A program made the translations under genes and the position numbers. A model generated the notes under the pieces. That model searched no databases. It saw only the letters and a program-made list of their open reading frames with translations, and had not been told where the DNA came from. 64,000 nucleotides of DNA from Clarias gariepinus. Lineage: Eukaryota. Location: NCBI RefSeq assembly GCF_024256425.1, contig NC_071115.1, positions 12,526,746-12,590,745 on the forward strand, in the 5' to 3' direction. Positions 1-31,889 of the stretch are shown here, piece after piece (the stretch's first letter is position 1; the number at the start of each line of letters is the position of its first letter).

Positions 1-2994
1 GTGCTGTTTCAGACTGTAAACTCTGTCTCACTGAAGCTTTTCTGAAACTAGGATTATTCACCATCACCAGCATTACTGGACAGCCATTTTCTATCATCGT
101 GCTCTGGGATTGATTAATTGAAACCAATGAGGCCGACTCATTTTCCCTGCATCCCCACACGCACACATATAATATACCAGATATTTTTTACATTTACTTA
201 TACACTGAAAATATTGTATATAATTGTAAATATTGGTACCTGGTGCACTGCAGTGTCTATTTTTTGTACAATACACGTAAGCCACTTACATGATTTGTTT
301 GCATCTATGAATGTTCGATCTGCAGTCCGTCAGCATCTGCGAATATTTAAAACATCTATAATAGCTATAGCAATAGCTAATTACTGTGAAAAAGAATAGT
401 CTAAAAAAGATCCCTACACTTTGTTAACCTTACTCAAAGGTTTTGCCTTAATGTACCAGATTTTTTCAAGATGAAAAGAAAAAAAGCATCTCATTCAGCC
501 ATCCCTGAAAGAAAGGAGGAAGCGATGACTTCCACTATCCCAAAATTATCCTCTTAGCCACCATCATTCCGAACATGAGAAAAGACTGCACTAAGTGAGG
601 TAATTCATTGGTGCATCAAAGTAACCAAGCAAAGCAAGTTTACAGTTTGGAGCAATCTCTGTTTCTTAAACATTTGAATACCAGTTAAATATATCTTGCC
701 AGAAGCCAATTACTGTACCTGGACACACAACCAAAAAGAATGAGTAAGAGTACACTCTTGGCACTGTAAGAACACTTAATTTTATTAAACTTAGTTCTTA
801 AAAAATAGGGCAGTCTGTGTATTGGTGAACTGAGACTGAGCATTAAGAGCATGAATGAGTCCTGTGCAAACTCTTATCCCTATTATATATCGGAAATCAC
901 GCTGCCAATATCTATCTTTCTCCCATGAAGCTTTTATATGATCAGAAGAAACCATAACGTTTTGAGTAAATAACAAAACAAATTGAGTAACCAAATGTCT
1001 CAAATAAGTAGGTAATAAAATGCATGATTACTGTACACAGAACTTCATTAAAAAAACTCTAACAAAATGCTGAATCTGAAGATGACAGATAATTGACATT
1101 TGCATCAATAATCAAATCAAAAGATGCAATGTGTCAATCAATGTATAAATCTCTGACTCTTACTGAATTCTGAACAACATGTCATTTGAGCATGTCAGGA
1201 AGAGGAAGTAAGACTAACTCTAGGACAGCAAGACAGCAAGGAGCAAGCTATTTAGACAAAAACTCGATTTTACGCACACTTGTGGGTGCTTTCCATTACT
1301 TCTCCATTATTTATGGCCTACCAATACATCACAGATTTAGAATTGGCTGCCGAGTAATAATGTTGGAACTCTGGTAGGGCAGTAGAGTTTTTTGGCAATC
1401 CAAAGCGTCTTGCATCACAAGATAAAAAGCCTATTTACACTATCCAAAGATTTAAAAAATGAAAACAGAAGACAAACTTGCAAATTCTAAAAGAGATAAA
1501 AAGAAACAAATAATTTTAATTGCATTAACATGATCTGTAAAAGAAAGGGGCAAGTTTCTCTATATTTTAATAGAGGTTTTAAGATTATTTAAAGTTTCAG
1601 TAAATTTAACTTGACTACTAGACTGAGATCTTTAAAAATAAATAGCCCAAGTTAAGTAAAGTGCATCGGTTATTTTAAACGGAAAAGAGACTGAAGAAAA
1701 TGCCTAGAAAAATAGTTTGAAGGGTCAAAAAGAAAACTTATTATAGTTGATTGCATACTTAGTAAAAGAACCAAAATCTCTGAATAAATCAATGAGAATT
1801 GGAAGAAGTGAACACGAACCATCATCATAAACCATCTGCTTAAAAAGGCAACTTTTTGCAACCAATGGTGACACCTTTTATGTTGGGGTAATTACGAAGA
1901 ACATTGAAATGGGGCTAGAATGCAAGATCAAAGTGACGTAAAGGCAGCCCTGTTTGATGCCCTGGTACAAATGAAAGGGTTGTGATTTTTGAGAGGTTGT
2001 GATGATAACAGAGCTTGCAGATTTATATAATATCTATGTGGAAAAACAAAAAATTTGGCCATAGCCAAATCGCTCTAAAACTAAATGCATGTATCCCTAT
2101 TCAATCTGGTCAAATGTCAAGGGTTACACCTTTTCAGCATCAAGGGAGATAAACGTTTTAAAAATACAACAAACATGCATTATGGCTGCCTATTTGTCTA
2201 CTAAGACATGTGGCCAACACCTTGGCCACAATCTTTTGATCACAATTGAGGAGGTTGAGGGGGTGATATGATGAAGGGTCTGTATCTTCCTTACCTTTTT
2301 TCAATATGAGTCATATGTGACTCAAATCGCTCGCAAAATGTTCAGATTAACCCAAGGACCTACTGGAAGATTTAGCTAAAGAGTATTGTTGCAACATTGT
2401 GCAGCATTGCACAAACATCTTCTGAATGTTCATCCAAACATGATCTGTATGGATCATCTTGGAGTGAGAAGAAAGAAACCTTTTCAGTGACCTCATTACA
2501 AAAGTAAACATCTGAAGCATGCAAAACATTATCTAGATAAACCAGAGGAAATTTCGAAACTCATTTCTGTGGACTGATGTAGTAAAAATGAAACTATTTG
2601 GCCACAGCAACGATATAACTTAGTATAACTGTAAAGCCATGTCAGATGAGAAGCTCATGACCACTTATTAAAGCATTTCTACACATCTTTTTCCTTTAAG
2701 GAGATTTCCATAAACATTCCTTTTTAGTGAGGTAAACCAGTGGTGCAGTGCTGAAAATTTATCCCCAGACTCCTTGTAGCTGGTTCAGCAACCGAAAAAA
2801 ACAACCCACCGTATGTTATAAACAGTGACAGTGAGGGCATGGGTGCTGGGCTCGGCTCACCTGAGCTGCTGCTGTTAGGAAAGTTTGCTTCATCTTCCTT
2901 GTTTTTTTTTATCTTAGATTTTTTTCACGAGGGGATGTATATTGCAATAGACTGCCAGGCATGATATAGGAAAAATGTGCAGATATACCTGCAG

Positions 2995-3135
2995 ACATGC
3001 AGATTAGGTTAATTGGCATTCCCAAGTGCCCGTAGGAGTGAGTGAGTGCATGTGTGTGTGTGTGCCCTGCGATGGATTGGCACCTTGTCCAGGGTGTACC
3101 TCACCTCATGACGCATAATGCTCGCACCCTAATCA
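2995..3135 (+). mobile_element. SINE 3'-half fragment
   Basis: cagattaggttaattggcattcccaa...gtgtgccctgcgatggattggcaccttgtccagggtgtacctcacctc. Confidence 0.65.
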
Positions 3136-3631
3136 ATCATCACTCCTAACTAAACCAAAAAACAAACACGGGAAAGTAAACCGGCGTGAGTCCAGCACAT
3201 GACGGTGTATCGGGTTGGCTAGGGGCTTGGACATCTGTCTAGTGCCCCAGTACGACGGAAAAAGCTGTGATTTGTTAGAAAAACAAAAACCAAATCCCTC
3301 CAAAACTAAATGCACATTTTATTACTATTCGATCAGGTCAAATATCTTTATGGCAGCAAGAGAGATGAAGGCTAAAGTAATATCTTTGATTCACCTGGGA
3401 AACATTACAGTGGTACTTCGACATATAACCCCCACACCTTGAGAACTTTTGCCTTAACAACTAAACTTTTGGAAAAAAAAGGAAAGAAAAACCTGAGCCA
3501 GTCACGTGTAATTCCAGTTGAGCATACTTCCTTTTTGTGGTTTTTTTTTTTGGATTTTGTGCAAGATTTAGGCAAGGCAGACTAGACAAGCCAAGCTTGT
3601 GTTTAAATAACAATAACTAAAGTGATAATAC

Positions 3632-3635
<4 letters not shown>

Positions 3636-3680
<45 letters not shown>
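3636..3680. repeat. (TA)22 microsatellite
   Basis: tatatatata... Confidence 0.95.
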
Positions 3681-3681
<1 letters not shown>

Positions 3682-4169
3682 CTACAGCATTGTGGACGTT
3701 CCACAACATTAAATGTACTTGTAATCCATTCCAGAGTGGACATTTCTTGTCCACTTCAACAGTCGTGTTTTTTTTTTTTTGCCTTTAAGGACGTTCTGTA
3801 GTTGTACTTCAGACTAACAAACCGTTTTAGAATGTTCTCGTACAATTCCGCATTGCGCAACATCCCTGTGTGTCGCTGCACTTAATCGAGGAAAACGCAC
3901 ATGAATCTTTTAACGGGGAACTTTTGCTTTAAAAAGTCGTGTTCTCTTGACGCTCGCGGCGACGTCATGTGACACAAACAAGCGCTTTAATTGGTTCGCC
4001 GAGTTCTGATTCGGTGAGTCCGCTGGGATCTCGGCCAGATCTGATGCTCTTCCCGCTCGCGCGCGCACATACACACGATGATGCAGTGTTTAATGCGACC
4101 GTTACTGAGTTGCTCTAACTCTCGGTACGGGGCACGTGAGCGCCGCGACGCTGTTTCTGTTGCGTTTAC

Positions 4170-4347
4170 CTGGCGCTGGAGTGAGAAGTTCTCGGAGCTG
4201 CTGTTTGAGCGTTTCGTTTTCGATGCGTGTCTGCGCGGTCTCTGTGCGGTACTCCGTTATTGTGGCTTCCACCGCCTCCAGGATCTCCCGAACAGCCACA
4301 GCCAGCCGCTCCATCAAATACGAGTTTAAAATCTCTAAATTTGACAT
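4170..4347 (-). CDS. First coding exon of an unidentified gene with a FiNZ-like helical N-terminal domain (as on fish C2H2-ZNF proteins)
   Basis: ATG at 4347. Reads MSNLEILNSYLMERLAVAVREILEAVEATITEYRTETAQTRIENETLKQQLRELLTPAP(G), then a consensus donor CCAG|GTAAAC (GT at 4169-4168). It is embedded in a CpG island (3840-4450) with an ETS ACTTCCGG motif upstream. No downstream exons were found in the window. Confidence 0.4.
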
Positions 4348-4469
4348 TTTGGAAGTAGTTTAAGGGTGAAGGCTACACCAGGGCCGCAGAAGCAGTGTGT
4401 ACCCCTGTGTCAGGGAGAAGCTTCACTCACAGAATCACTTCCGGCTGTCAGCAGAATTGATTTGTGGCG

Positions 4470-5462
4470 TAGAGTGTAATTACTAATGCACAAACACCAG
4501 GGGGCGCCATAGGGGGCTGAGCTGATAACAGACACTGACCAGCCATAATATTATGGCCCCGCCCCCTTTGTCACTATAATATTGATGCACTGTGTTCTGA
4601 CACCTTTGTATCACCACCAGCATTAACCTTTCCATCAATTTGATATATACTAGCTCTTATATTGGATCAGAGTACACCAGCCAGCCTGTGCTCCCCATAA
4701 ACATCATTGGGCCTTGGCCAATCGTGACCCTTTCGCCAGTTCGCTGGTTTTCCTTCTTTTAATTACTTTTGTATGTCCTGAACACCCAAGAGATGCAGTT
4801 GTGGAGGTGCTCTGACCCAGTCCTCTAGCCATCACAATTTAGCTCTTGTCAAAGTCACTTAAAACCTAGCCCATTTCTCTTGCTTATTGCTTTCTGCTAA
4901 ATTTATTAGAGAATTATTGTATTATTATATTGTGCTTGCTGCCTAATATATCACACTGACTTCCAGCCACCATTGTAACAAGATATTGAAAATGTAGCAA
5001 GGCCCACATTGTAATGGCTAAGTTGCTCTGACCCAGCTGTCTAGCTATTACAACATGGCTCTTCCTGAAGTTGTTTGATGTGTTGAAAGCAAAAAAATAA
5101 ATAAAATGGGCAAGCATAAGGATTTGAGTGACTTTGACATGGGCCAAATTGTGATAGTTAGAGACCTGGGAAATTGCAGCTATTGTGGGATGTTCCTGGT
5201 CTGCAGTGGTCAGCACATACCAAAAGTAACTGTTCAACTGTTGAACTGGTGACAAGGTCATAGGTGGCCAAAGTTTACTGATGCACATAGGAATCGAAGG
5301 CTGGCCCATGTAGTCCAATCCAATAGAAGAGCTAGTGGAGATTAAATTGATGAAAAGGTTAATTGAAAAGGTTAATGCTGTTGTAAAAAAAAAATAGGGG
5401 GACCTAGTCAATATTAGTTAAGTGGTCATAATGTTATGACTGATTGGTGTATGTACAGTGGA
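4470..5462. mobile_element. Composite of fragmented Tc1/mariner-like transposon pieces (ITR-like segments plus a transposase N-terminal fragment 5103-5400 on plus)
   Basis: Plus-frame translation gives MGKHKDLSDFDMGQIVIVRDLG..., a typical Tc1-like transposase N-terminus. It is disrupted by stops. Two copies of gctctgacccag(t/c)c(g/c)tctagc(c/t)at(c/t)acaa ITR-like sequence are present. The terminal cactgtacatacaccaatcagtcataacattatgacc sits at 5425-5462. Confidence 0.6.
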
Positions 5463-8400
5463 CCCTCGGTAAATTAATTTAATTGGTTCTGGAGGTGAGT
5501 TCTTAAGGCGAAAGTTCATACTGTGAATTGGATTTCCCCATAAGAAATAGTGTAAATGCAGATAATCTGTTCCAGCCACCCATAAATATGACCAATTTCT
5601 AACACTATAATCATATTTTTGCATATAAAACAATTAAACCATTTAGAAAAGATATGAAATGAAGTAAAATATGAAATGGACTTTAAACCTTACTTACCCT
5701 TAATTTCCTGATTCCTCTTGAAATCAACTGCTTTTTAATGAAAATTTCCATCTTAATTTCCATTAAAAAGGCCCCTTTACTTCTTGCTACCGTCCTTACT
5801 ACCTCTTTTGGGACCCATGGAGCTACGTCTTCATTAGTCTTGTACAAAATGCCCCCCAGCCCCCCCACACTCCCCCCCTAAAAGGAAAAAAAACAAAAAA
5901 ATGTAAAGTTTATAAATTTGCTTTGCTTGGCTTTTCACTGGTGCAAACGAGTTTTGAATGACTTGTGGATGTATGTGCAACTTAGCCAGCATTCCATTCG
6001 TTTGTTCGTTCATAATCTGATCCAAAATTGTTGCAAAATTTTAATTCATACAAGTCACTTAGTCTATGCTTACCGATGTCAGGAAAGAAAAAGACTACCT
6101 TTTTTACAGTCATGCACATCTGTTGCTCTCAAGAACATAAATAATTTTAACATGACCTGGTGAAATCTGGGAGAACAAAAAGTTGAAGTTGTGTTGATGT
6201 CCATTTGGAGACAAGCCCAAGGGAGGGCGGGAGAGAGCAACATAGAAAGAGAAAGTGAGAAAGAAAATGTGGGAGAGTTAACATTTTAATATTAAAACCA
6301 AAATAAGTAGAAAAGCATAGGGGAGTTAAAACATTTTATATTATAAAACAGAAGCAAAACATTCTTCCAGGATGGAAGCGATCCTGTGCATGAAGTAATG
6401 TTCATGCAGACATGACTAGTCAAAGTTGCATCAGAGTGGTGCACAGCCCTGACCTCAATCTCACTGATCACCTTAAGGATGAACTGGAATGCTGAGTTGT
6501 ACCAGGTCTCCTCACTTCACATCAATGCCTGATCTCACTTTCTCTAGTGGGCTCTTGCTGGTTCTAAGTGAGCCCAAACAGATCAGGATGACAATTACAA
6601 CATCACGTCTAATCAGTCTGGTTTTGTTTTAGCGGGCTTGGGGAGAATAAGACAGATAAACTTTCAGAGATAAATTGAGGGTTTGGACTGTGAGAGCAGT
6701 TGTCTTATAGCTATTACTGCTGTTCACTTTCACCCAGTCTTCAGTTCCTGTTACTGTCAAACTAGAGGCCTGTAGCTTGCCAAACACTAGGGAAGGGATG
6801 CAACCTCGCCCACTTATATCAAATTCATCGATTGGGTAATTTTATTAAAATGTATAATTAAATCCCCCTAGGTTAATTTATTTGTACTCTCAGACAGCTT
6901 GTTTATCTTCTCTATCCCTCTGTGACATTTTCTAATCAGTGACCTTTTCTGTCTGCTCTCACTCTCTCCATTGTGTAATGGTGAGCATGTCCACAGGAAA
7001 AACTAGTTGTTACAGAACTGCAATGAATGTGCAGGCAGTAACAGGCAGTTAAAGGGAGTTGTTAATCATTATACATGTAATAATTGTAGGGACTAACAGG
7101 CCACCTCAAAGGGAGCCGTGAATCTGTCACCTTCCAGCGAAACCATGCTGACAACGCTATGTTTCTCAATGGTACGAAGCAACTGGAAGTGTGATCCGGT
7201 CAAAGCAGGAAACCTAGATGGCTTTTACCAAGCTTGACCTCAAACAGTACAAATCAGCAAGTGGTTGTACAAGGAAGAGACAGTTTTACAACATTAGCAA
7301 ACTAGGAAAGAAGCAGTTTTACTGCTTTCTTGTGCAACTCCCTTGCACAAGACAGAAGCAGTTACACATCCCCACTCAAACTGCTCTGGGTTACGTAAAT
7401 TGGCAAGCACCTCACTTGAATAAGGAAGAAGACAGTTTCCTAACCCTCCTGGCAGTTGCTGACCACCAGAACGCATTTCCTGCTTCATCTCTTGGCTCAA
7501 GAACCAAGAACATACCTACTTTAGGGACACTTATAATGCCAATCAGTTAAAGTATGCCAGTAGGGCAAATATAAAATTATATGCATGTATTTATATAGGA
7601 TGTTTGGTATCATTGGGTTGTGTTCAACATGTCTATCCTAAACTTAGGAAGTGTAATCAACATGTATAACCCCTCTCTATAGATGACGGTATCAATAAGT
7701 ATACAAGATATGGGATGCTTGGTATTTAATGAAAGCTTGGTTTATTCAAAGAGCATTGATGTGTATTAAAGTTATATGAACCAGACTCGTGGTAATACAC
7801 TCTTAGTTACGAAAACTCCAACGAGATGTCCTCTCACGTGACAGACCAAATGCTAGATTAATGTATGCACGAAAAGTAGTAACCATGCGGGGCTTGGCTC
7901 TACGCACACAATCATCTCTGATTGAACACCTGTGGAACGGACCTGCTCCGTGGGGTCAAAAACCCCACGTCTGAAATCCTACATCGTCTGAAGTAAGGAA
8001 GCAAGCCCGTCCTGCTTCGGCCCCTGCGGCCGCTCCGCCGCCCTTGTGGGCATTCTATTTGGGACTTTGTATTTTCGCCCTTTGCATCAATGTATATAAA
8101 ATTATATGTATCAATAAGCAACCGGGGCATGCGCTCTTCAAGAACTCTCAACAAGACCTTGTGCCAGAACTCTAAAGTCCTGCAACGAAGAAAACCTTAG
8201 AAGAATTTCCAGAGCTCCACCATTGGTAACCAGGCAACCAACCCCTCACCAAAGGGCTTCCCCGAAAGACGTCATCTCAATAACAACGCACCAACAAATC
8301 AGCAATGGTGTGATTCCCTTCGCTGGAGGAGAACCAACGGATGAGAACGAAACGTATCTCGAGTAAACAAACAAAGCTTTATAAACCGTGAGATTAAACC

Positions 8401-10158
8401 CAAGGCTCTGCTCTTATGACTTCCTCAGGTCTAGTAAACAGTACTAGAAGAACTTCAGTAACTTTCCCCCTCTAAACTGTTTGTGTGTGTGTGTGTGTTT
8501 AGGTAGTGTAGTTTTTATTTATTGTAGATTGGTCAAATAAAATCTGAACTGTTGTCTTGGTCATGTATTTTGAAGTCTAAACATAAACCGAATTGGTAAG
8601 ATACACTACATCGTGTTAAACGCTGAATGGATAGATGATGAAGTGTATTCTATAAATTTTTATGTAGTTTAATAAAGTCAACCCGATTCCCTAAAGATTC
8701 GATTCAGAGCTGAAACCCTTCATAATATAGTTAATGATATATTCATATAGATAGCTAAAACTAATATTATTGACCAATTGTACAGAACAGTCTGTTAAAG
8801 TTACACAATGTAGGATGATTTAAAATATACAGGTATATCTATATAAATAAAAGAAATTTATTTAAAAAGAGGTTTATTTAAAAGGTTTTATCTGGTACAT
8901 TGGTCAGAAAAGTAATGTTATGAACAGTTATGCGCTGGATTTAAATAGGGAGTGTATTTGGCTGACAGTAGGTTGACAGTGTCAACAAGGCGTAACATAC
9001 TCTTACAAAATTTTAGTTCTTTTTATTAATAAGTTGGGCAGAGAGTTGTGCTGTACAGAAAGACAGGCAGATGTATGTGGGCTTAAATAACCTAAAATAA
9101 TATCACTGAATACATTTAAGCTGATCAACTTATTTTTACCTTTTCTCTTATTTCTTCTTCTATCACCACTTAATCTTCATTCCCGATTGTCCATAGGTCA
9201 GTGATCTTAAGTATATATTCATATCACTCTTTTTGCAGTACACTATTGAGTAAAAAAATAATTTTTATGTATGTGTGTACTTCATCCTTCATGCCTCTAT
9301 CATGCATTTTCACTTCCTTCGTTTCAAACTACTGCGTCACCCTCCAGCTATCACCATTTACAGCATCTGAGCCCAGTCCTGTCCCATTTGTCTCCTTCTT
9401 AGAGCCACACTGGCAGAAATGTTTAATTATTCATGTTGTTTTAAAATTCAAGTGAGTTTTTTTTTTTTTTTTTTTTTTACTAACTCCCGTCAGTAACGTC
9501 AGGGTACACTCCCCTTTGCACATCCTCGTTTTATTAGTCCCTCACTCTTTTCTGCTCCTTACCAACTGTTGCCCTGGCAACTGAAACATCCTGGAAGTGC
9601 ATGATGAAGTGGGAGTAGACAAAGAAGTAAGTGGGGGAGAGAGACAGAGCTACAGTACTTAATGAGTGGACAAGCTGAGAGATTAGATATATTTTTATTG
9701 TATACACTTTCTGTTATGTTTTTTGTTATTTTTTTTAATTGGGAAAAGAATCAAATGGAAAAAATGTGATCTTGATCATGTTAAATAGGCGCTTGTAGTA
9801 CACAGCATGACTTACTAGTAACAAGATAAATTTAGGCTATCATTATCTTAAAAGATGTGGGCAAATCATTGTATTCCCTGACCTATTGGACATCTGAAAT
9901 GTCAATCCCATATTTTGTTCGTTCATAAACCTACTTAGCTAGATTTAAACAATTAGCATCTAATGTTTAAGGTATACATACAAGCTTGAAAACCTCTCTG
10001 CAAAAGAATGACAGAAGTAAAAAACCCTTTAATATAATACAATTTATTTAGTATTTCCTATTATATTTAATTAAGTTTATAATAAACTCATCACAAAACC
10101 CTTGAACTTCAAGTGAAAACAGTGACGGAAGCGAAGCCCACTGCAATCGTTCCTGTGA

Positions 10159-11249: not shown

Positions 11250-11660
11250 AAATTTTTAAACACCAATTAGCCTAATCTACATGTTTTTGGACTGTGAGAG
11301 GAAACCCACCAAGCACAGGGAGAACATGCAAACCCCATGCACACAGACCCAACATGGGAATTGACCCAAGGCCCTGGAGGTACAAGGTGACAGTGCTAAC
11401 CACTAAGCCACCGTGCCACTCAAGGTGTGCTGGGAGAACAATGTGCTGGGTAGGGGTACGTTTTCGAAGTTTTCATTGGGAATGCCAATTAGCCTAATCT
11501 GCATGTCTTTGGAAAGAAACCCACCAAACACAGGGGAGAACATGCAAACTTCATGTGCACTGAATCAAGTATGTCCAGGAATCGAACCTGAAGGTGCAAG
11601 GCGACAGTGCAAACCACTAATCCACTGTGCCACCCGAGGTGTGTTGGGAGATAAAAAAAC
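11250..11660 (-). mobile_element. Two tandem 5'-half SINE copies, same family
   Basis: Two direct repeats of gcctaatctacatgt(c)tttgga..gaaacccaccaa(g/a)cacaggg(a)gaacatgcaaac..., each ending in a tRNA-like head (reverse complement). Confidence 0.65.
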
Positions 11661-12187: not shown

Positions 12188-12510
12188 GACAGCCGGGATG
12201 GTGGTTAAGTGGCTAGCACTGTTGCCTTGCACCTCCAGGGTCTGAGTTCAATTTGCGCCCAGGTTCGATCCCTGCCTCTGTGTGTTTGAAGTTTGCATGT
12301 TCTCCCTGTGCTTGATTGGTTTCCTCTCACAGTCCAAAAACATACAGATTAGGCTAATTGGTGTTCCCAAATTACCCGTTGTGTGTGTGTCCTGCGATGA
12401 ATTGGCAGCCTGTTCAGGGTGTACCCTGCCTTGTGCCTTAAGTTTCCTGGGATAGACTCCAGGGCCCCCCGCAACCCTAGATACAGGATGAAGTAGTCGA
12501 GATGATGAGG
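12188..12510 (+). mobile_element. Full-length tRNA-derived SINE (family with core CCTGCGATGGATTGGCACCCTGTCCAGGGTGTACC)
   Basis: tRNA-like head gggatggtggttaagtggctagcactgttgccttgcacctccagggtct..ggttcgatccctgcc. Conserved body ...tttgcatgttctccctgtgcttg..tcctgcgatgaattggcagcctgttcagggtgtaccctgcc...gataaag-like tail. Confidence 0.75.
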
Positions 12511-14774
12511 TTGAGTGATTTTCATCATGTATTTATTTTTGTATTTTCTTTATTTTTAACCTTTTGAGCAAGACTGAACGTATGTCTTTTATCCGCTGTT
12601 CATGTTATAAAGTAAATGGAAGAGTCACACAGGTCCCAGCATAAAGGTGCTTTGTTTAAACAAGTATGCTAATTAAAAGGTTATGTTGTGCAAAAGTCAG
12701 TAAGGGGTGCGGGGATATATCAACAACAGAGGAATCCTGGTGACTGATGTTTGAGCAGCTTATAAATCCAATTTGAGCTCTTTGCCATGAAAACAAATAA
12801 AACCCTGAAAGCCTGGACCTGTAATCTGCTGGTCCTGGATGCTTCGGGAATCCCATCAGAAGTCCTTAAATACAATATTCCATTTTTTTATAAAGCACAA
12901 ACTTTTTTGATTGGCTCTGGACATGTAAACCGTCTCACAGGGCTTTTGGATTCCAGACAACACACACGTGGAGCTGTTGAGGAAGTGTTTATTCGCAATG
13001 CTCACTGAAACATTATTAGTGTCAGTCAAAAGTGAAACAAGATCAATACATACAGTAGGGCTCTATCATACACCTTGTAATACATACTGTGTACATCACA
13101 TATTGTTGGTTAAAAGCAATCCGTTAAGGCATGCACAGGCAAATCTGCACAAAGTCAGGATTATAGAAGCGGTAGGGCTTGTCATAATGCAAGAAACAGT
13201 AATTTTATAGAGAATAAAAGCATCAACCTCTGGCACTGGTGGCTTACCCCAAATTAGGGTGAGAATATGCAGTAAAGGAAAATACATTCACTGGAAGAGA
13301 GGAATGACAAAAGAAAGTGGCACTGACTGCTTTTCACACTCCTTCTTGAAAAATACAGATTTGCATAAGCTAGAAATGAAGAGACACGGCGAAACGCAAA
13401 CGAAACCCAGAGACTGATACTCTGCTGGTGTCACTGAAAGATTAGATGATTCCTTCTTCTGAATTTCACACTAAGCAGCATGTGGATTCTGTAATAAACT
13501 GTGTAAACACTCGAGGTCAAAGTTCCCACCTCAGGATATATATATATATATATAGTCCACTCAGAGGCAGCGATTCTGAAGTACATTACCATAAAAATAT
13601 GTTATAGCGATAAATATAGTATAACAAGAAAATGCATGAAATCACTGTAGTGATAACAGTCAAGAAATTGCATTACTAATAACCTAATATTCATCATAGA
13701 ATAGCACGTGGGCAGAAGGTAGCAGTACAAATATATACATATCGATATGTACATTAGTATATACAGTACATTAGGGAAGCTAGCAGTGCAGGCAGAATAA
13801 ATATCTTCAGCCAGTTACAGCATTTCAAGAGAACAGAAACAAAGCCAAGGTTCTCACGTTGCTGCACGGTATGTTTTTTTTTTTTTTTTTGGATTAATGC
13901 GAATTAAAAGTAAGCATGCTACAGGTTATTCATATTCGAGGGAAGCAAAGGAACTGAACGAAACGGTGCACAATTCAACTCATAGCAGAAGTTGCAACTG
14001 GTGCAAGTGTCAAATGCAGCAAAAGAGTCAGTTCAACACAATTTTGGAGAATTCATTCCTTTTTCCAAACATGCACGTTTATAGATTCCGTCCATCGGTA
14101 AAACGGAACAGAAAAAGGGTCCCTGAACAATGTGTGCTAATGTGTAAAGTATTCATCTCTCAACTGACCTCCAGTTGCATTCAAGCCCAGTCTTAGACCC
14201 AGTTCATTGGTTCTGAAAGAGACAAAAGTCCAGAATATTTCATTTGGAATTTTCCAGTTTCGTGCTCTGGTGCCACCTTGCCCCCTAGTGGACAACACTT
14301 CATTTGTGCAGCTTGAAAAGATAAAATACAGAACAAGCTCTGAAGCCTGCATTTCACTGGCATGACCCAGCATGTGGTCATAGTGCTTAACAATGCTGTA
14401 AACCATGTCGCATACGGAAGTTTGTTCCTTTTTTTTTTTTTTTTTTTTAAGATAATCAACCTCACGTATTTACAAAAGTGCTACAAAACGAAGGACTTTG
14501 CCTTCAGAAAACCTTCAGAAAACTCTTAATCGTCACTTGCTTTTGGCTTTCCTGGAAAAACCAATTATACTGTAAACATACATGAGTATTTTTCGATACT
14601 TAAAAAAACTATTACGTGAGAAAGATTTCACACAGAAAGTACATTTACACAGACATAGTATGATGTATATAAGATGATAAGCAATGTTAAAATAACATCA
14701 GTGTTGCAGACTGGGATATTATGATACTATTATGAACTCAGGAGTATCATTAATTATCTCTATCTCTCACACAC

Positions 14775-14813
<39 letters not shown>

Positions 14814-16444
14814 TATCTTCGGATTCAAAAGAGAAAAACAAAAAGAATATCTTTCAGAGACTTGGCACAGATTCTGTTTTGGCAAAGCTTCCCAAACAGA
14901 AGTGAATTGGATATCGCACCGGTAATTGACTTATAACGACTCGATCAAGGGAAAACATGCAGATGTGTTGATTTCTTTGCATTTAGGGATTCCTTCATGC
15001 ATGATCATACCGGTCTTGTTACCATGAAAATATGCTGTAAACTCAAAAAACAAGACAATACCGGTAACTTTGCACTATTTCCTCTTCGTATGGTTTCACT
15101 GGTGGTGTGGTAAGGAGAGAAGGGGGTGAGAAAAGTGTTCAGGGGGAATACCGCATAACCCCCTCCCTTGTACACACACACACACACACACATAACCACA
15201 CGCTTAAAATATAGGACCAATCAGAACGTGCGCCTGCATCCTTCACCGCAATTCCTTGCATCTCTCCATCTCTAGAGTATCTTTTCATCAGCAGTTTGCC
15301 CCCTCCCTCTTCCTCCTCCCTCTCTCACATCTCTCCATCTGTGTGAAACAAAGAGCTGCAACCCAGTTCAGACAACCCCATTCCTCCTCCCCTCTACACC
15401 ATCAATGCGCTTTAGTTACCGTCAGCCCTCATGTCTGGGAGAAGCTCATGTCTGGGATGTCTGTTCTGTGTGGCTTCGCCTGCATTTCTTGTTCGTCTCA
15501 CACTAATTCCCATCTGATAATGTGTCAAAAAAGACATTACAGACATACATACAGTACTTATTAAGAAGACCAAACCGGTGCAGGAGACGCACCGTAGGAG
15601 TGTGCATGCTAGTTTCCTTTATCGTCTTGCTCCCTTGGGATTCCGATCGTCTCTAGTAGAGAGCGCTGGATTGAGATGCTGCTTGCTGGTTTCATCAGAT
15701 TCTCATCCCGTTTCCATTTCGCCGTCTCTCCTTCATCATTTCAGTAATTGCCTTTCCCGCCATAAATCTACATTAGGCTATTCTTTTTTATCTACGAGTC
15801 TGATGTCATTACTCAGATAGTGTGCAGCCTTGGTAGCAGATGGACACGATGTCTCTACGACTCTCTAAACAAATTGCCTTTCTCAAAACAACATGCTTTT
15901 TTATTCTTTCTGATCTTTCTCGATTTCTCATCCTCTATCTCTCTTTCTCACTCTCTCCCTCCTTACATACACATACAAAGGACTTAAGACGGAAAAATGA
16001 GATCATACTGAATGCCTCATTGATGACATCATTTAAAAAAATGTCATTTTTCAAAATAAAAATAAAATAAACCATGCATTTTATGATTACGCTGGCTGCA
16101 GTCATTTTATACCTCCATTCGGAATGCTGGGGAAGTCTTGACTCCTGATGTTTGCTGATTTTCTTTCTGCGGATGAAAACAATGTGTTTGGTCTCAGGAA
16201 CTTGATCTAGAGTAGAAAAAAAACCCAATCTTGAGGTGCTTCAGTAATATGTGGGAATGCAGGTTAGAGAAGGCCGATGGTCATGTGGATCAGTCGGATG
16301 GTCAGAAATTCCTCCTTAGTTTGATTGTCATGGCAACCCTCAGGACTTTAATATCACTGCAAGAAAAGAAAACAGGCTCGTTAGAGGCAATACTAAAAGT
16401 TAAACAAAGGCTAAGTGGCATAGATGTGATTATTCTCATTCATC

Positions 16445-16785
16445 TTCTATACCGGTTTATCCTGTATTCAGGGTCGTGGGGACCTGGAGCCTATGCCAGG
16501 AGGCTTAGGGCACGAGGCAGGGTACACCCTGGACAGGGTGCCAATCCATCGCAGGGCACACACACATACACACACTACGGGCAATTTGGGATCGCCAATT
16601 AACCTAACCTGCATATCTTTGGACTGTGGGAGGAAACGGGAGCACCCGGAGGAAACCCACCAAGCACAGGGAGAACATACAAACTCCATGCACACAGAGA
16701 CGGGAATCAAGCCAGGCCGGGAATCGAGCCCGGACCCTGGAGGTGCAAGGCGACAGTGCTAACCACTACACCACCGTGTCACCTA
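16445..16785 (-). mobile_element. Full-length SINE, same family
   Basis: Reverse complement of the SINE consensus: ...ggacagggtgccaatccatcgcagggcacac... ...ggtgcaaggcgacagtgctaaccactacaccaccgtg. Confidence 0.75.
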
Positions 16786-17247: not shown

Positions 17248-17494
17248 CTGAGAGAAAGAAACACAAGAGAAAAGAAACTAAGAAAGATAAAAAGATGACA
17301 GAAAAGCACACAGAAAGTCATTTTGAGTAGATTAAATGAAATCTGATATAAGACTGATTCCAAATAAAACTAATTGTATCGTATTGTAAAAAATAATAAA
17401 AAATGATGCATCAACATACAACCCACTACACACGCAACTGTTTTAACACATTTTTAATCAGGAAAGTTAATCCTAAGCTTCTAAACAACTGTAC

Positions 17495-17802
17495 CATAAC
17501 AGAGAACGTCAAGCCGACGATGTTGATGGGCCAAAGTGGGCAGAAGCAGGCAAGTATGGCCAGGAAAAGGTAATCGTTAGGCTTGGTGTCATCTCCTGCA
17601 TTCTCGGTGAGAGCGCTGGGCTGGCGGCTGAGCGAGGGCCGAGGCGACCCAGCATGGCTCAGTGAACCTGAGCGGCTGCCGATGCGGGCATGGCCATGAG
17701 CATGCACATGGCCAGCCTTGGTATGATGATGATGACGAGGGGGAGAAGAACGGGAAGAGGTTGAAGGAGAAGCATCCACAGCATTGGGACAAACTCCATT
17801 AC
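17495..17802 (-). CDS. prrt2: PRRT2-like coding exon 2 (His-rich region and TM1)
   Basis: Reads (S)NGVCPNAVDASPSTSSRSSPPRHHHHTKAGHVHAHGHARIGSRSGSLSHAGSPRPSLSRQPSALTENAGDDTKPNDYLFLAILACFCPLWPINIVGLTFSVM. Acceptor ctcaccag|GT, donor GTTATG|GTACAG. The C-terminal part matches PRRT2 [27 protein letters not shown]. Confidence 0.75.
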
Positions 17803-17959
17803 CTGGTGAGGATAAAGAAATGACAAGAAGAGGAATTGTTGAGAAAAAAGGAATTGGTTGGGTGGTGACAAATAGTCAGGATGTGAGAGAATTGTGTTTG
17901 GTAGATGGTCAGGTTGCATGCCACAAATGACACAAAAAAGCACATGCTAAGAACTTTAC

Positions 17960-18224
17960 TTGTTTCCATCTTTTCATCAATGACCGACAGGTTGTCTTTG
18001 GCCACGCCGTTCATATGGACTGAGCTTTCCAGAGCAGGAGTCTCCGTGTCTGTGGGTGGATCTTCATGCTCCGTCTTCACTGGCTGTGAGGTTATGGGAG
18101 CCTGGCCAGACACGTCATCTGGTTGTTGATTGGTCATTTGCTCAGTTTGTTGCTGCTCTTCTTCCTGCCCCTGCCCTGCACTTAGGGCAGTAGTTGGTGC
18201 GTCGCTGTCGGTGTTCAGAGCCAT
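17960..18224 (-). CDS. prrt2: PRRT2-like (dispanin family) coding exon 1; exon spans 17960-18310 with an 86-nt 5'UTR part
   Basis: ATG at 18224-18222 (atcaagATGG). Reads MALNTDSDAPTTALSAGQGQEEEQQQTEQMTNQQPDDVSGQAPITSQPVKTEHEDPPTDTETPALESSVHMNGVAKDNLSVIDEKMET(S). Upstream acceptor ctctttcccacag| at 18311-18312; donor ACAA|GTAAAG. Low-complexity acidic/proline-rich N-terminus as in PRRT2. Confidence 0.7.
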
Positions 18225-19176
18225 CTTGATGCAAGATGCAGAGTTTGCAAAAATGCCCAATTTCTTTTTTCAGACTAGTGCTGTACTGTGGCTGTCAAAT
18301 TACTGAATATCTGTGGGAAAGAGTTAAAGAATTGTAATGAATTTAATGTTAAAAATAATGAAACTCATTGGATGTACAGAACATGGCGGGAGATTGTTAC
18401 CAGGATGTGGCCTGTTTGTTTTGGTAAATTGGTGTATGATCTGACAACTTTCTTAATTTGAGACTTGAACAGGTGGGAAGGGCTTGTTAGTTGGACAGGT
18501 AGGACTTGTTGGGTGGGAGGTAAACACTTGTCAATGTCTTCCTTTCGATTGCAATTCACTGTGCAAGCAGCACGGGCATCTTATAATTATAGGTTGGTGG
18601 ACTAACGAACAGACAGATATTGAGCACAGATACTGAGCACATTGAGCTCACTAACTATTTATAGAGGGGAATACATTCTGTCTTGCGTGGGACCTTGGAA
18701 TCTTTTTCAGCATTCTGGACACCAACCAATGCACATGAACCATCTTAAAAAGTTCTTAAAATATTCGGCTGCAACTGTGTGTGTCAGGAAATCATATGGA
18801 AGAGGCTTCATGGCAGACCATCAGCTCCACCACCCTACAACACATCTAAGTGACTCTATTGCTCTGCCATGGATCTGGTCTGAAAGGAAACCATTGTTTT
18901 TAAAAAGCATTTTAAAATTTAAATAAGCCTCTGCTGTTTGTGAGGTGAATTGCAATTTCAGTTAAGACATTAGCAGGCTTTCCACCAGTACAGTGTGTCA
19001 GAACTGTGTACATGGAAACTGTGTTTCCATGAGGAAAAAGGGTGGAGCCAAATATTGTTTCAGAAAAGTGTAAACAAACGGCTAAAAATTAAGACAGTAA
19101 TATCGATTCCATATTAAAATCTGGAATTGGATACATTTCATATATAATATAAAAATAAATATAATAAATAACTTCA

Positions 19177-21299: not shown

Positions 21300-21565
21300 T
21301 TGTGTTATCCTGTATACAGGGTCGTGTGGGGCCTGGAGCCTATCCCAGGAGTATGTGTGCACGAGGCAGGGTACATCCTGGATGGGTTGCCAATCCATTG
21401 CAGGGCACACACATACACACACTCACATGCACACTATGTCATTTAGTTCTAATCTGCATGTCTTTGGACTGTGGGAGGAAACCGTAGTACCCAGATGAAA
21501 CCCACCAAGAAAGTGGAGAACATGCAAACTCCACACAGTGCATATCACTGCGCCACTGTTCCGCC
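21300..21565 (-). mobile_element. SINE copy, same family
   Basis: cctgtatacagggtcgtgtggggcctggagcctatcccagg...ggatgggttgccaatccattgcagggcacac... Confidence 0.7.
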
Positions 21566-25585: not shown

Positions 25586-26108
25586 CTGAGAGTGTAATAC
25601 AGAGAGAAAGAGTGATTATTCATTATTCACCAAAAACAAATATGAACAAATTAATTCTAAGGGCAGATGCCCAGTGTAATGCATGGGTGAGGTGTTGTGC
25701 TTCCTGTCAACGTTAACATCAACAAAAATAGCCTGAGTCAGGTCAGAACTCGACATTAGCTCAGCAAAATAGCTGATTTTCCAATTGATTTCCTTTGAGA
25801 ATTTGGTATAATGCATTATTGTACCTTAACAATTCTCTTTGGATGCCCATCCCAACATTATCAAGCATGTGACCTATTTATTTATGTCAGTTAAAAAAAG
25901 CTGAAAAAAGGCATGCATGCCAGAACAGCACAGACTGCCAAGGTAGCATATTAATTTAGTTAAAAAATATTGGCAGGAGAACAGAACACCTGTGCAATGA
26001 CTGAAGTTTTCCATCAGCTGAATAACACAAAATCTGATCAGAACCTGAAGGACAACAGGGGATATCATAATGTCGTTCAGCAGTGAGAGGTGAGAGGTGT
26101 ATACTGAC

Positions 26109-26320
26109 CTAGCTGTGGCCTCCTGGGAGTTGGTGGTGATTTCAATGGCAAGCTGGACGCTTTTCTGCAGGGCGTCACGCGTGCGCTGGTCCACCGGCTC
26201 TACTGACTGAATGTCCACACTGCTGATCACCAACCCGTTCTGACTGAAGCGCAGATTCTGTCTTACTGCCAGCTTCTCGTCAAAGCCAAACACGGCTGAG
26301 CAGATAATCCGGTTCGAGTT
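26109..26320 (-). CDS. mvp: mvp exon 13
   Basis: Reads [70 protein letters not shown](R). Acceptor T22-cacgcctag|AAC, donor GCTAG|GTCAGT. Matches human NSARIIRTAVFGFE...[39 protein letters not shown]. Confidence 0.9.
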
Positions 26321-26514
26321 CTAGGCGTGCAAAAAAAAAAAAAAAAAAAAAGGCAAGAGAAGAAGTGAGTGTGTACCATGCATACTGTAGAACCTTTATG
26401 CATGCATGCTATGTTGATTGAAGGGACAGATGGAAAGAACACATGCTAGAATATCAATGGTGGCATTACGAAAGATTTCTATGTATATAATAAACGGAGC
26501 AGCTTTTAATTCAC

Positions 26515-26659
26515 CTTGTGGAAGTCATCAAACTGCACTGAAGCCACAGCTCCTCTGATCCTAGAGGCAATAGCTTTGCAGGCATCACCCACGAAGTCAG
26601 GCACTGAGAAGAGAGCTGCAGCTTGTGCAGGGTCTGACTGGTTCTTAATCTCGAAATGC
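26515..26659 (-). CDS. mvp: mvp exon 12
   Basis: Reads (W)[48 protein letters not shown]. Acceptor cttgttcag|G, donor CACAAG|GTGAAT. Matches human [48 protein letters not shown]. Confidence 0.9.
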
Positions 26660-27482
26660 CTGAACAAGTGCAGAGAAAATGAACAGTAATTCAAAAACAA
26701 TATTTTAGACAATACGTGCAGTTTTATAAATCCATCACTGTCATGACAATATAGAGACAAAATCAATTTGGCAAGCGTGATGGTTTTGAAAACAGTTTAG
26801 TTTTACAAAATTATTTTCTACATTCGAGAACAATACTGGACTTTTTCGATACTATAAAATAACACAAGGCATTAGGGAATTAATTAACAACAACAAGAGT
26901 AAGTTGTTATTTAAAAGGCAGAAAAGTCAGCTATTCTGGAACGGTTCTTGCAAGATGATGAAACTGGCTCTCATGAACCCCGTCCCAGGAAGACCAGACC
27001 AAAACTTACTTCTGCTGCACAGAAAAAGTTCATCGAGTGTTTCCTGCATCACAAGTCACCAATTAACAAACAACACCTCAGATTAGAACCGTTATCAATG
27101 CTTTACAGAGCTTACAGTAGGTAGAGAACACATCTCAATATCAGCTGTTTAAAAGAGATTATTGCATATTGTAAATGCCTTCAGTATTCTTTTATAGGAA
27201 TTAGAAGGTTTGACTGGTAGTGTTAGTTACAGTAATTATTACTGCAGGACAAGTGATGACTGTATAATGAGGACTCGCAGAGCTTCTTGGCAACACATTC
27301 ATTTTTGACTCCCTATAGGGCTTGTACTTGTTATTCTGGCTGTAATCTGTCTGCACGTCCTCTTATTAGACTCTTAGGACCCAAGAGTCCTGCTGTCATG
27401 CATTGCTTTTTACCCCACACTTGGATAAGTAGCATATTTTGTAATGCGTGATATTTTTTATACACAGATACATCCCGGGAAC

Positions 27483-27483
<1 letters not shown>

Positions 27484-27520
<37 letters not shown>
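27484..27520. repeat. Compound (GA)n(GACA)7 microsatellite 11 nt inside the mvp intron after the exon 11 donor
   Basis: gagagagagagagagacagacagacagacagacagacagaca. Confidence 0.95.
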
Positions 27521-27532
27521 TGCGCGCTTTAC

Positions 27533-27730
27533 CAGTTGTAGGCGAGCTGGAGCTGCAGACGGGCATGATCAGCGGTTTCTATGGTGATGATGTCAGTGCA
27601 GAAATCAGGGCCGAGGAGCAGGCAGATGGCTTTAATGACGTTGGCTCGCTTGGGTTTCTCTCCAGATAGAGAGAGTACTGTGAACTGCTCATCAGGGCCT
27701 AGCATCACCATATCAGGTCCAAACACCACC
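27533..27730 (-). CDS. mvp: mvp exon 11
   Basis: Reads (R)[65 protein letters not shown](W). Acceptor ctctcag|G, donor AACTG|GTAAAG. Matches human [66 protein letters not shown]. Confidence 0.9.
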
Positions 27731-28562
27731 CTGAGAGAGAAGGCACAAGATTCTTAAAAACAGCTTTAATGCAAATATTGCCATCGAAGAGAGGAAAAGG
27801 TAGTGGTTGAAATTTAGTTCAAAAATAATTTGAATATTTAGTGACCAAGTGGATTAATAAATTTATTGATCTTGAGTAGGTGCTTTATCTATCCTGGGAA
27901 CACTGGGTGCAAGGTGGGAATGAGATGCTGTGGCAGTTCAATACAGCAGACCATGCACACACTACGCATGTCATAGAATAATGGATACATAACATTTTTA
28001 ATAATGTGTTCTTCTTAAACATTAGATAAGCAAACATTAATAAAAAAAAACCTTCCTGAATAACAGGCAAGTACAGATTCCAAAATGTCCTGTTAGTTTT
28101 TTTTTCTTGTTTATAGCGCCACACAGTCACCATTCACTTTATTAGAAACACCTGTACACATGCACATTCATGCAGTTATCTAATGAGCAAATCATATATA
28201 ATTATATAAAGCAAATTATGTGGCAGAAGAGCAACACAAACCATCATGCATATACAGTAAACATGCAAGTGCTTGTGTGATCTCTGTGATCTTGACATAG
28301 AATGGTCAAATGGGGTAAAAAAGCCGTGTTGATGAGAGAGGGGAAGTCTGTAGAAATTCACAAGCATGCTGAGCGGTAATGCGTCTCAGAACACACAACA
28401 AAGCCAACCTTGAGGTGGATGGGCTACAACAGAAGGTCACATTCAACAACGCATTTCCGTCCACAGAGCTGTTGCTCGCTCAAAGTTTGGTGCAACTTGA
28501 GATTGGCGAGGAGTTTTAGAAATACCTTAACCTGATATTCTTATACAATTACCCATACCATA

Positions 28563-29282
28563 ATAAAATTCACAGAGCCCACACTAAAGCCCAATCCCAA
28601 ATCTACCCCTTACCCCTACCCCTCTGTTTGACGCGTTAACGTGAAGGGGTAGGGGTGTCTCATTTCTCTTTTGGTTGGAGGGGTAGGGGTAAGGGGAAGG
28701 GCCTGATAGCCCTCCAAACGAAGATTTTTCGGGACCTCACTTCAAACGAAGGGCTAACGAAATTTTCAAGATGGCCGCTCACTCGAGCTAGCAGACCCAT
28801 AAATTTAACGAATTTTTGCCATTAATAAGGATTTTTATGACAAGTTTTTATTATATGTATATTAATTTTAGTCTTGTGTTTATGGTGATGTTTTGTAAAA
28901 AAACGTTTGCAAAAAAAACGCTAAAGTTTGCTAGCGGATAGCGCCGATTGCGCAATATTACAAAAATATATTTTTATGTCATATACACTTTACTGCATGC
29001 TACAAACAAATATAAAAGTTCAGTAGCACGGCAGTTTGCCGAGCTTTTGATAACGCATTGTTTGTTTTGCTTACGGCCATACTGTATGTGTACATGTAAA
29101 TGAACGGATACGTATGATGACGTATAACAGTGTTGTAGTGGTGTCCCATTTCTTAGGGGAAATATTTTAACCCTTCCCCTTTCCACTTCGTTTCAAGGGA
29201 CAAGGGGAAGGGGCGAGGGGTAGGGGAAGGGGTAGAAAATAGAATTGGGATTGGGCTTTAGTGTTCATTCTGAATTTTATGC
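28563..29282. mobile_element. MITE-like element with long (about 100-190 bp) G-tract-rich terminal inverted repeats, in mvp intron 10
   Basis: Left end ataaaattcacagagcccacactaaagcccaatcccaaatctaccccttacccctacccc... Right end ...ggggtaggggaaggggtagaaaatagaattgggattgggctttagtgttcattctgaattttat. The ends are reverse complements. Subterminal ccaaacgaag / cttcgtttcaagg are also inverted. Confidence 0.6.
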
Positions 29283-29407
29283 GGATATTAAGTGTGGGAA
29301 TTCTTTTGCATGTGATTAACTGCAATGAGCAGAAGCACAGGTGTTCCTAATGAAGTGGACGGTGACGATACATGTTGCTCTTACTGTGGAAACACATCTT
29401 TTGTTAC

Positions 29408-29643
29408 CTGGCTTTCTTCTCTCTGTAGTCATACACCTGCACTGCAGCATTATGGGGCACACGGTAGGACACCACCCTGGTTTTGTCCCTGTCTTCAGCA
29501 GCGGCCTGTTGGCTACGGTCAGAGCGGCCGGCTAGAGGGTCACGCATACTGCTCAGCAGCTTCTCCACATTAGCAGGGAGTTCCTTTTCCCACAACTCCT
29601 CGTCGTGCGTCAGCATGTATGTGCGGCCAATCACAGCGCGTAC
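29408..29643 (-). CDS. mvp: mvp exon 10
   Basis: Reads [78 protein letters not shown](R). Acceptor ctgggcag|GTA, donor GCCAG|GTAACA. Matches human [23 protein letters not shown]...[25 protein letters not shown]. Confidence 0.9.
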
Positions 29644-30201
29644 CTGCCCAGAGCAACGAGGAGTACAAGAGACAAATATTTACATAAAGCTTTACATAGC
29701 TTCAGGTCTGTTTGCATGTTTTTCTAGCAGAACTCAGCGTGGCGGAGGGTGCAGTCACTTGCTAGTGCAATACTATAGGCAAGCTGATCAAGTAACACCT
29801 GTTATTATGCAGGCTTCCACTGCATTAAGAATTTACAGCTGGAGGTCCACCTGCTTTGTTACTTAATATACAGTAACTCCTTATTGAAGACTCAGCCTTT
29901 TGGGACATTAAATATGAGTTACGATTGTTTAAAGCTTGCTGTTGCTTCATTTATTCATGAGAGACTATAGACACGATCGTGACCTTCCATCCTCTGTAGA
30001 ATGGGATTATATGTTTTAGAAATGCAGGGTGGATCTGACTTTTCTCTGGACATTTCACAAGCCAGATTTCATAAGCCGTCTGTGGGTGTGGACTCGTGAT
30101 CCTACAACAGAAGCATTTCAAGGTCTAAGACTCCTACGCACATTCTCTCCTCCTTGTATGAATTGTGTTTATGAAGAGTATTAAACAAAAAAACTATTGA
30201 C

Positions 30202-30402
30202 CTTGCCAGTCTTGATGTCGCGCACATATATTCCTTCATTCTCATCCAGCGGAATAGCCTGGCGTCGCAGCATGACCTCTACAGTGGCAGGCGGCACGTA
30301 CTCGATTGGCCCACGCAGCATCCAGCGGTCTCCCGGGCGTCTCGGTACACCCTTCTTTTTGGATTTTCCAGCTAGCTCCTCTTCCTCGCCTTCTTCCTCT
30401 TG
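30202..30402 (-). CDS. mvp: mvp exon 9 (acidic linker plus repeat)
   Basis: 67 codons: [67 protein letters not shown]. Acceptor ctgcatcag|CAA. The donor AAG|GTCAAT is weak, but the next exon starts with the expected V. Matches human EEGEDEEK...[43 protein letters not shown]. Confidence 0.8.
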
Positions 30403-31723: not shown

Positions 31724-31889
31724 CTGACGGGATAAAAGCATTAATGGATTCAAACTTAACGCAATAACAAAAGATCCTCTGAGTAAGCCCTTTTTTTTGG
31801 GAGGGGGAGATATTTTCATAAACGTCATGCATCTGCTCTATGCTACAGTATGCACATTTACAAAATTGGTTATGAAGAAAAGCTGTTAC

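Follow-up and report, generated by a model that had tools for sequence, protein, structure and literature searches.

The closest described systems are N-terminal sequences of fish zinc-finger proteins. FiNZ is a 28-amino-acid, glutamate-rich and cyprinid-specific N-terminal sequence, which in the FiNZ zinc-finger (ZNF) genes lies on an exon of its own, followed by a single exon encoding the finger array, and a FiNZ morpholino matches 447 of the 684 zebrafish FiNZ genes (Wells et al. 2023, PMC10547256). The actinopterygian KRAB-like domain is an N-terminal domain of ray-finned fish C2H2 proteins (Carotti et al. 2022, PMC9101882), which is found in one or two genes per species, gar, bichir and sturgeon included (PMC9101882; PMC11603059), and has A25, L27, Q29, R37, L45, E48 and L49 as its key residues (supplement of PMC11603059). 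Here, we examine a 64,000-nucleotide stretch of the genome of the catfish Clarias gariepinus (contig NC_071115.1; the whole stretch is called the window), in which an initial annotation had placed a minus-strand CpG-island exon encoding a FiNZ-like N-terminal domain. To our knowledge, teleosts have neither TRIM28 nor canonical KRAB-ZNFs, and hence the way in which teleost zinc-finger proteins recruit their partners is an open question, for which a 55-residue single-helix module, with a range that extends from eels to perch-like fishes, offers a concrete candidate.

We are highly confident that window positions 4431-4170 on the minus strand are exon 1 of an ordinary two-exon C2H2 zinc-finger gene, which encodes an N-terminal domain, predicted to be helical and probably an interaction module, and is spliced in phase 1 to an exon outside the window carrying a linker and five fingers. 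The minus-strand open reading frame (ORF) from 4347 to 4102 starts with MSNLEILNSYLMERLAVAVREILEAVEATITEYRTETAQTRIENETLKQQLRELLTPAP, the very peptide quoted in the initial annotation, and then reads through into the intron. A word-indexed protein search returned 11 exon-sized relatives only and missed the full-length ones, which were found by an exhaustive HMMER search. DNA was obtained for six of the exon-sized relatives and for one Prochilodus locus (L001 in the characiform Prochilodus; L002-L004 and L006-L008 are catfish loci, as is the window; the pair L009 and L010 stands for Neoarius and Tachysurus). In a seven-species DNA alignment (A2), the exon is kept in all seven species, which belong to at least two orders, with an invariant ATG, frame and GGTA donor, and its sole indel is an in-frame insertion of 12 nt right before the donor in the two most distant species. 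The Nei-Gojobori ratio of nonsynonymous to synonymous substitution rates (dN/dS) is 0.06-0.25 in every informative pair and 0.12-0.25 against the other catfishes, so that relaxed constraint is not indicated. Third codon positions hold most of the differences (for example 12 of 16 against L002), and of the six frames none but the sense frame is open in 7/7 species. In summary, given the low dN/dS, the third-position bias and the invariant frame and donor, 4347-4170 is a protein-coding exon under purifying selection, as the initial annotation had proposed for its first exon.

The exon is single-copy within the window. In Prochilodus, part of the exon occurs a second time, in inverted orientation (SVREILEAVEATVTEYRQETAQ...), at L001:14447-14629, 4.4 kb downstream of the intact one, and P0159, which is full-length and has the identical exon 1, is encoded on another Prochilodus contig than the L001 exon. 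The second Prochilodus exon copy may stem from a duplication, or else reflect a haplotig or an artefact of assembly.

The structure of the complete gene is seen in the orthologs. The closest full-length HMMER matches, P0014 and P0015, have C-terminal C2H2 fingers, and P0014 as a query led to annotated orthologs in Otophysi. P0168, the annotated 'zinc finger protein 180' of Neoarius graeffei, starts with MSKLELLNSYLMERLAVAVREIVEAVDATVTEYRTETAQTRIENETLKQQLRELLTPAP, goes on after the exon boundary with EPAQKSS..., and then has the linker and five C2H2 fingers; its first exon ends in RELLTPAP, as does the exon of the window. P0195 ('ZNF75A', zinc finger protein 75A, of Tachysurus fulvidraco) and proteins from Pangasianodon, Silurus and Hemibagrus match other exon fragments, and further orthologs are P0170 (a Pangasianodon hypothetical protein) and, at a greater distance, Astyanax 'ZNF324B-like' and Hoplias 'zgc:66443'. 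Over exon 1, the window is 80-88% identical to the catfish orthologs; 5 of the 59 residues differ from Neoarius. When P0168 and P0195 were mapped on their own genomes, both were found to consist of two coding exons, one for residues 1-59 and one for residues 60 to the end (60-392), with an intron 1 of 3.6 kb in Tachysurus and 30 kb in Neoarius. The gene is an ordinary one, which is already annotated in related catfish genomes.

The use of the splice donor was followed in a related catfish, for which P0181 (393 aa) comes from contigs of ~1.5-1.7 kb of three separate RNA-seq runs (L011-L013) and is identical over residues 1-59 to the genomic L006 exon. The mRNA contigs L011 and L013 equal genomic L006 from the 5′ untranslated region (5′-UTR) through ...ACTGCGAG; at the donor, the L006 genome reads on into GTAAAT, while the mRNA goes ACCCAGTTC... 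into exon 2. All of L011-L013 depart from L006 exactly at the GT, the equivalent of which in the window is the donor 4170/4169, and the same exon boundaries are found in L009 and L010. As the equivalent donor is used in the mRNA contigs of a related catfish, the 4170/4169 donor is genuine, and the CAG/GTAAAC donor and the spliced transcript on which the initial annotation depended are both borne out, the transcript in that relative.

Exon 2 itself was sought in the window. No C2H2 motif was found anywhere in the window by a regular-expression search of all six frames, and exon 2 of P0168 and P0195 gave no match in the window, tblastx and tblastn of positions 1-4170 included. Collinearity between the window and the Tachysurus locus extends from the CD225 gene on the upstream side to a point ~1.7 kb into intron 1 (window 2487). 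Taken together, the lack of any exon 2 or C2H2 match in the window and the collinearity with the Tachysurus intron 1 place exon 2 beyond the left window edge, in agreement with the initial annotation, which had put the rest of the gene outside the window and which the single exon with five C2H2 fingers in the orthologs now completes. In the 7.8 kb downstream of the Prochilodus exon, there was likewise no tblastx or tblastn match to exon 2. The 4170/4169 donor would therefore splice in phase 1 to one large ortholog-like exon to the left of the window, which would encode an acidic linker of ~180 residues (...SKSGSEEISPCG...LPVVKLHRVKLEPEE...) and the five C2H2 fingers.

We then turned to the structure of the encoded domain. 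From an alignment of 52 sequences, AlphaFold2 predicts that residues 3-55 form a single unbroken helix, the mean predicted local distance difference test score (pLDDT) being 94.8. The strongly hydrophobic columns 4, 7, 11, 15, 19, 22-23, 26, 30 and 33 are spaced by three to four residues, and are followed by the polar and highly conserved E36, R41, E43 and N44 (Asn44 being near-invariant) and then by L47, L51 and L54. A conserved Asn one turn ahead of leucines with a spacing of three to four recalls dimeric leucine zippers. The sole weak matches in Pfam and PDB are parallel dimeric coiled coils, namely TSC22, GEMC1, YabA, XRCC4 and BZLF1, with 19.1 bits for TSC22 (PF01166) against a cut-off of 30 and PDB E-values of 0.02 or worse; TSC22 also matches 9 of 88 family members at E<=1e-4, which we take as a general coiled-coil resemblance only. 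Given the predicted helix with its 3-4 seam, its zipper-like end and the weak coiled-coil matches, the domain is probably a coiled coil through which the protein associates with itself or docks to a helical partner. The amphipathic helix of ~55 residues would have a hydrophobic seam over positions 4-33, continued by a short leucine-zipper-like stretch, and would either dimerise the protein or dock a helical partner, which would give the finger array a protein-interaction end and would parallel the role of SCAN, BTB or KRAB in other zinc-finger families; this binding and any regulatory outcome of it are what we infer from the predicted fold.

The domain belongs to a large family. The exhaustive HMMER search with the exon profile gave 458 cluster representatives at E<=1e-3 (clusters defined at 50% identity; family profiles A1 and A4), including 91 at E<=1e-10, with a range from Elopomorpha to Percomorpha. 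In 104 of 140 proteins, the first copy of the domain begins within residues 1-3, and that of the window begins at the ATG (4347); the window peptide shares 37-88% identity with the other 51 members of A4. C2H2 fingers were detected with Pfam in 45-46 of the 88 family members of at least 150 aa, and BED fingers in two members. Hence, the statement in the initial annotation that an L..L..ERL..A..EI....E.TI.EY.E pattern marks the N-termini of large teleost zinc-finger families was sound, and the profile search that it suggested recovered such a teleost family with C2H2 fingers. Pfam-A has no model of the domain, giving sub-threshold coiled-coil matches only, and no published name or description of it was found in the searchable literature. 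A very large teleost-wide domain family, carried by hundreds of zinc-finger proteins, with no Pfam model and no name that we could find is of mild novelty. We can also propose, tentatively and leaning slightly against it ourselves, that this is an undescribed teleost-wide family of N-terminal coiled coils, a fourth major partner domain of vertebrate zinc-finger proteins beside KRAB, SCAN and BTB, older and broader than FiNZ and perhaps the main dimerisation or co-repressor-docking module of teleosts.

In Tachysurus and Neoarius, the ortholog is followed downstream by a gene (L010:16778-16933 and L009:48683-48838, respectively) that encodes giant zinc-finger proteins of 2288 and 2659 aa, which also open with the helix domain (50-52% identity over 52 residues). 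The shared N-terminal domain copy makes the two neighbouring genes tandem paralogs at their 5′ ends.

Several observations weigh against reading the exon as the start of a five-finger gene with an interaction helix. The finger part is taken from orthologs, which share 80-88% identity with the window in the exon, as exon 2 is outside the window, and the spliced-transcript support comes from a related catfish and not from Clarias gariepinus. The helix comes from a monomer (single-chain) prediction. About half of the longer family members have no fingers, so the domain is not strictly finger-linked, and some members have two to four tandem copies of it; in some cases, the fingerless and tandem-copy members may be merged or truncated gene models.

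The coordinates of the exon and of the features around it are collected in Table 1.

Table 1. Coordinates of exon 1, its promoter region, intron 1 and the interspersed repeat in the window.
Feature	Position	Strand	Remarks
Exon 1 coding sequence, 59 codons + 1 nt (phase-1 boundary)	4170-4347	-	ATG at 4347-4345; encodes the N-terminal domain, predicted helical
Splice donor GT, CAG/GTAAAC	4168-4169	-	last exon base 4170
5′-UTR of exon 1, minimum extent	4348-4431	-	5′ ends of L011 and L013 aligned to L006 and the window
ETS/GABP-like motif CCGGAAGTG (putative)	4436-4444	-	unique in window; ~5 nt upstream of the longest mRNA 5′ end
CTCF-like motif GGCGCCCCCTGGTG (reverse complement CACCAGGGGGCGCC; putative)	4495-4508	-	unique in window; ~65 nt upstream of the inferred transcription start site
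CpG-rich stretch	3750-4400		observed/expected (o/e) CpG 1.0-1.6, GC 0.45-0.58; whole-window o/e 0.42 (sliding windows)
Conserved proximal intron 1 block: CTGGC.GAGATCCCAG, CCAAT (3990-3994), E-box-derived CACATGAC (3964-3971)	3914-4039	-	
GGTGAGT	4013-4019	+	1 of 5 window copies; at a window-specific 16-nt deletion
Intron 1, partial	1-4169	-	exon 2 left of window edge
Interspersed repeat	2993-3107, 11261-11419, 12283-12509, 16434-16778, 21305-21538, 47419-47574, 50792-50945, 63760-63888		

The transcription start site was approached from the mRNA contigs, of which L013 is the longest and reaches the window equivalent of 4431, contig ends being a lower bound only. Transcription would start just downstream of the conserved ETS-type motif, in which CCGGAAG is invariant in 7/7 aligned species; the ETS/GABP assignment is a putative one, made by resemblance to consensus motifs. 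The motif further upstream may be a CTCF site, as judged from its resemblance to the core consensus, and is conserved among the catfishes and, in part, in both distant species of A2. The CpG enrichment noted in the initial annotation is present, and the CpG-rich stretch spans the exon 1 coding sequence and reaches ~400 nt into intron 1; positions 3901-4400 (GC 0.51-0.58, o/e 1.0-1.55) qualify as a CpG island (>=200 bp, GC >0.5, o/e >0.6). Upstream of the inferred start site, the o/e falls to ~0.3, and the island is therefore not centred on the promoter.

The proximal block of intron 1 is conserved in the catfishes and in the two distant species. Counted from the donor, its CCAAT is at +163 to +188 in 7/7 species and is followed by a CAC[GA]TG in 6/7; this E-box is GTCACGTGAC in most species and CACATGACGTC in the window, a change that gives rise to a TGACGTC resembling a cAMP response element (CRE) at 3961-3967. 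Thus, of the CCAAT and CRE-like motifs listed in the initial annotation, both are present, but the CRE-like one has arisen, in the window only, from an E-box that is conserved in the intron. The CCAAT/E-box block may act as an enhancer within the intron or serve as an alternative promoter. A (TA)n microsatellite of ~27 repeats was also observed in intron 1, at window 3625-3680.

The FiNZ label had implied that the exon encodes a FiNZ domain and that the gene is a member of the cyprinid FiNZ-ZNF family, which silences transposons at zygotic genome activation. The layout is indeed identical, with a small exon for the N-terminal domain and an exon for the finger array, and both N-terminal domains are fish sequences joined to zinc fingers; this layout, however, is common to KRAB zinc-finger genes too. 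The reverse complement of the FiNZ morpholino, ATG GCG TTT ATT AAA GAG GAG, reads MAFIKEE, and such a MAFIKEE-coding target has no match in the window with up to three mismatches. The FiNZ alignment A5 has the consensus MAFIKEESEDMKIEExFRVKHEDTEEQTDL, with a Glu and Asp content of 0.36 against 0.18 for the present domain, and hhalign of A4 against A5 gave a probability of 0.6% over 15 columns; FiNZ aligns with the full-length orthologs solely through the zinc fingers that are present in some FiNZ rows. The host is a catfish, whereas FiNZ sequences (MAFIKEESEDMKIEE...) are cypriniform only: a search with a FiNZ query gave 211 proteins, every named one of which is cypriniform. The cypriniforms Carassius and Triplophysa also hold members of the present family, and hence the two coexist as separate families. 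FiNZ membership thus fails on sequence and on taxonomic range, as far as a comparison of sequences can tell, with a non-specific two-exon layout alone in common, and this explanation is almost certainly wrong. Since there is no relationship between the two domains and FiNZ is confined to cypriniforms, we advise against passing on the FiNZ label. A further suggestion, that the peptide is derived from or encoded by a transposable element (TE) and is not a host exon, deserves next to no weight either. The family is large and multi-copy, some proteins have tandem copies of the domain and two have BED fingers, as might be expected of a TE, but a Pfam scan of the 88 longer members found no transposase, reverse transcriptase or integrase, and with no TE-type partner domain the TE-encoded match that the initial annotation had held out as the alternative does not apply. 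Moreover, the exon is single-copy in the window, is under purifying selection, and stands beside CD225 in a synteny conserved across orders, with conserved non-coding flanks.

For the structure of the locus, the initial annotation had raised a possible bidirectional promoter from a plus-strand GGTGAGT, which it placed at 4012 and which in fact starts at 4013, and from the CCAAT and CRE-like motifs. On this reading, a plus-strand transcript would start at ~3960-3990 and use the GGTGAGT as its donor. The region is CpG-rich, and the CCAAT and E-box block would be well placed for a plus-strand start at ~4020-4060. However, the GGTGAGT is specific to the window, occurring in none of six orthologous introns, and we judge it to be a chance match outside the gene. 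In addition, the annotations lack a divergent protein-coding gene for both Tachysurus and Neoarius, in which the upstream CD225 neighbour is co-directional and ~10 kb away from the ZNF gene, and a transcript of this kind would overlap exon 1 in antisense instead of diverging from it. A bidirectional promoter is therefore very unlikely. It is likewise very unlikely that exon 1 is an orphan or decaying relic, the finger exon of which has been lost or disrupted in Clarias gariepinus. Such a loss could account for exon 2 being unseen in the available 4.17 kb, when the Tachysurus intron is only 3.6 kb, and the inverted partial exon copy in Prochilodus means that exon fragments do occur. Against it, the ORF, the ATG and the donor are intact, the dN/dS against the catfishes is that of a constrained exon, and the promoter motifs are conserved. 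Intron 1 ranges from 3.6 to 30 kb among the catfishes, and the intron in the window has repeat insertions, so that an exon 2 beyond the window edge is to be expected. We therefore retain the reading of an intact first exon of a two-exon C2H2 gene.

The linker in exon 2 has a feature of its own. In P0168, P0159 and others, residues ~154-177 contain a near-invariant LPVVKLHRVK(L/I)EPEE..IPVSLPD, the VK(L/I)E of which, with its acidic residues, fits the SUMOylation consensus psi-K-x-E and is a putative site of this kind. FiNZ holds three psi-K-x-E motifs (IKEE, MKIE and VKHE), which hhalign did not align with the linker, and this is a short-motif resemblance only. The LHRVK(L/I)EPEE of the linker was also considered as a true FiNZ-like element and was rejected, FiNZ aligning with the zinc fingers of the orthologs only.

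In the rest of the window, the exons of a gene of the CD225/dispanin family (PRRT2-like; Pfam CD225, E=2e-9) lie at 17426-18260 on the minus strand, upstream of the ZNF gene and on the same strand as it both in the window and in Tachysurus, where the arrangement is syntenic. The exons of a major vault protein gene (Pfam Vault, Vault_2 and MVP_shoulder) were found at 25874-33902 on the minus strand. The combination of a PRRT2-like gene and major vault protein is reminiscent of the human 16p11.2 neighbourhood, with a different gene order. Blocks at 6365-7024, 9278-9808 and 12935-13927 (and also at 13565-16362 against Tachysurus) are 70-81% identical to Tachysurus and Neoarius; three of these non-coding blocks are ~73-83% identical to Prochilodus, and the blocks take up the 12 kb that separates the CD225 gene from the ZNF promoter. 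The upstream blocks in common with Prochilodus were considered as exons and rejected, there being stops in all frames. A high-copy interspersed repeat of ~150-350 bp has at least eight copies in the window and ~20 in the Neoarius locus, where it makes up much of the 30-kb intron 1. Fragments of a Tc1/mariner-type transposase are found at 5106-5252 (+; MGKHKDLSDFDMGQIV...) and 62889-63157 (+; ...DWPAQSPDL...).

Compared with the known systems, the locus is closest to its own orthologs in Neoarius, Tachysurus and Pangasianodon, which share with the window the donor position, the upstream CD225 neighbour and non-coding blocks; the NCBI names of such proteins (ZNF180, ZNF75A and others) are automatic best-hit labels and do not mean orthology to the human genes of the same name. 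KRAB and KRAB-like domains have in common with the present domain an N-terminal position in ray-finned fish C2H2 proteins. KRAB (PF01352) gave no Pfam match to the domain even at E<=10, and hhalign of A4 against the KRAB alignment (A7) gave a probability of 0.04%; the KRAB-like residue pattern, compared by the published residues alone, occurs in 0 of 154 family matches, and the window shares A25 only. SCAN, BTB/POZ and the TSC22/bZIP zippers are, as the present domain would be, N-terminal helical interaction modules on a DNA-binding part, with no significant sequence match between any of them and this domain. SCAN and BTB are globular multi-helix folds, whereas the present domain is predicted to be a single long helix, the C-terminal third of which has a zipper-like N-x2-L-x3-L-x2-L, as in leucine zippers. 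The FiNZ-ZNF genes resemble the present one in that both domains are fish-specific, have no Pfam model, and are encoded by an exon of their own upstream of a single C2H2-array exon. FiNZ is 28 aa long, Glu-rich and cypriniform, whereas the present domain is ~55 aa long, forms one amphipathic helix according to the prediction and is teleost-wide, and the present gene, with its five fingers, looks like a conserved single-copy ortholog, whereas a FiNZ-ZNF is a member of a fast-evolving array.

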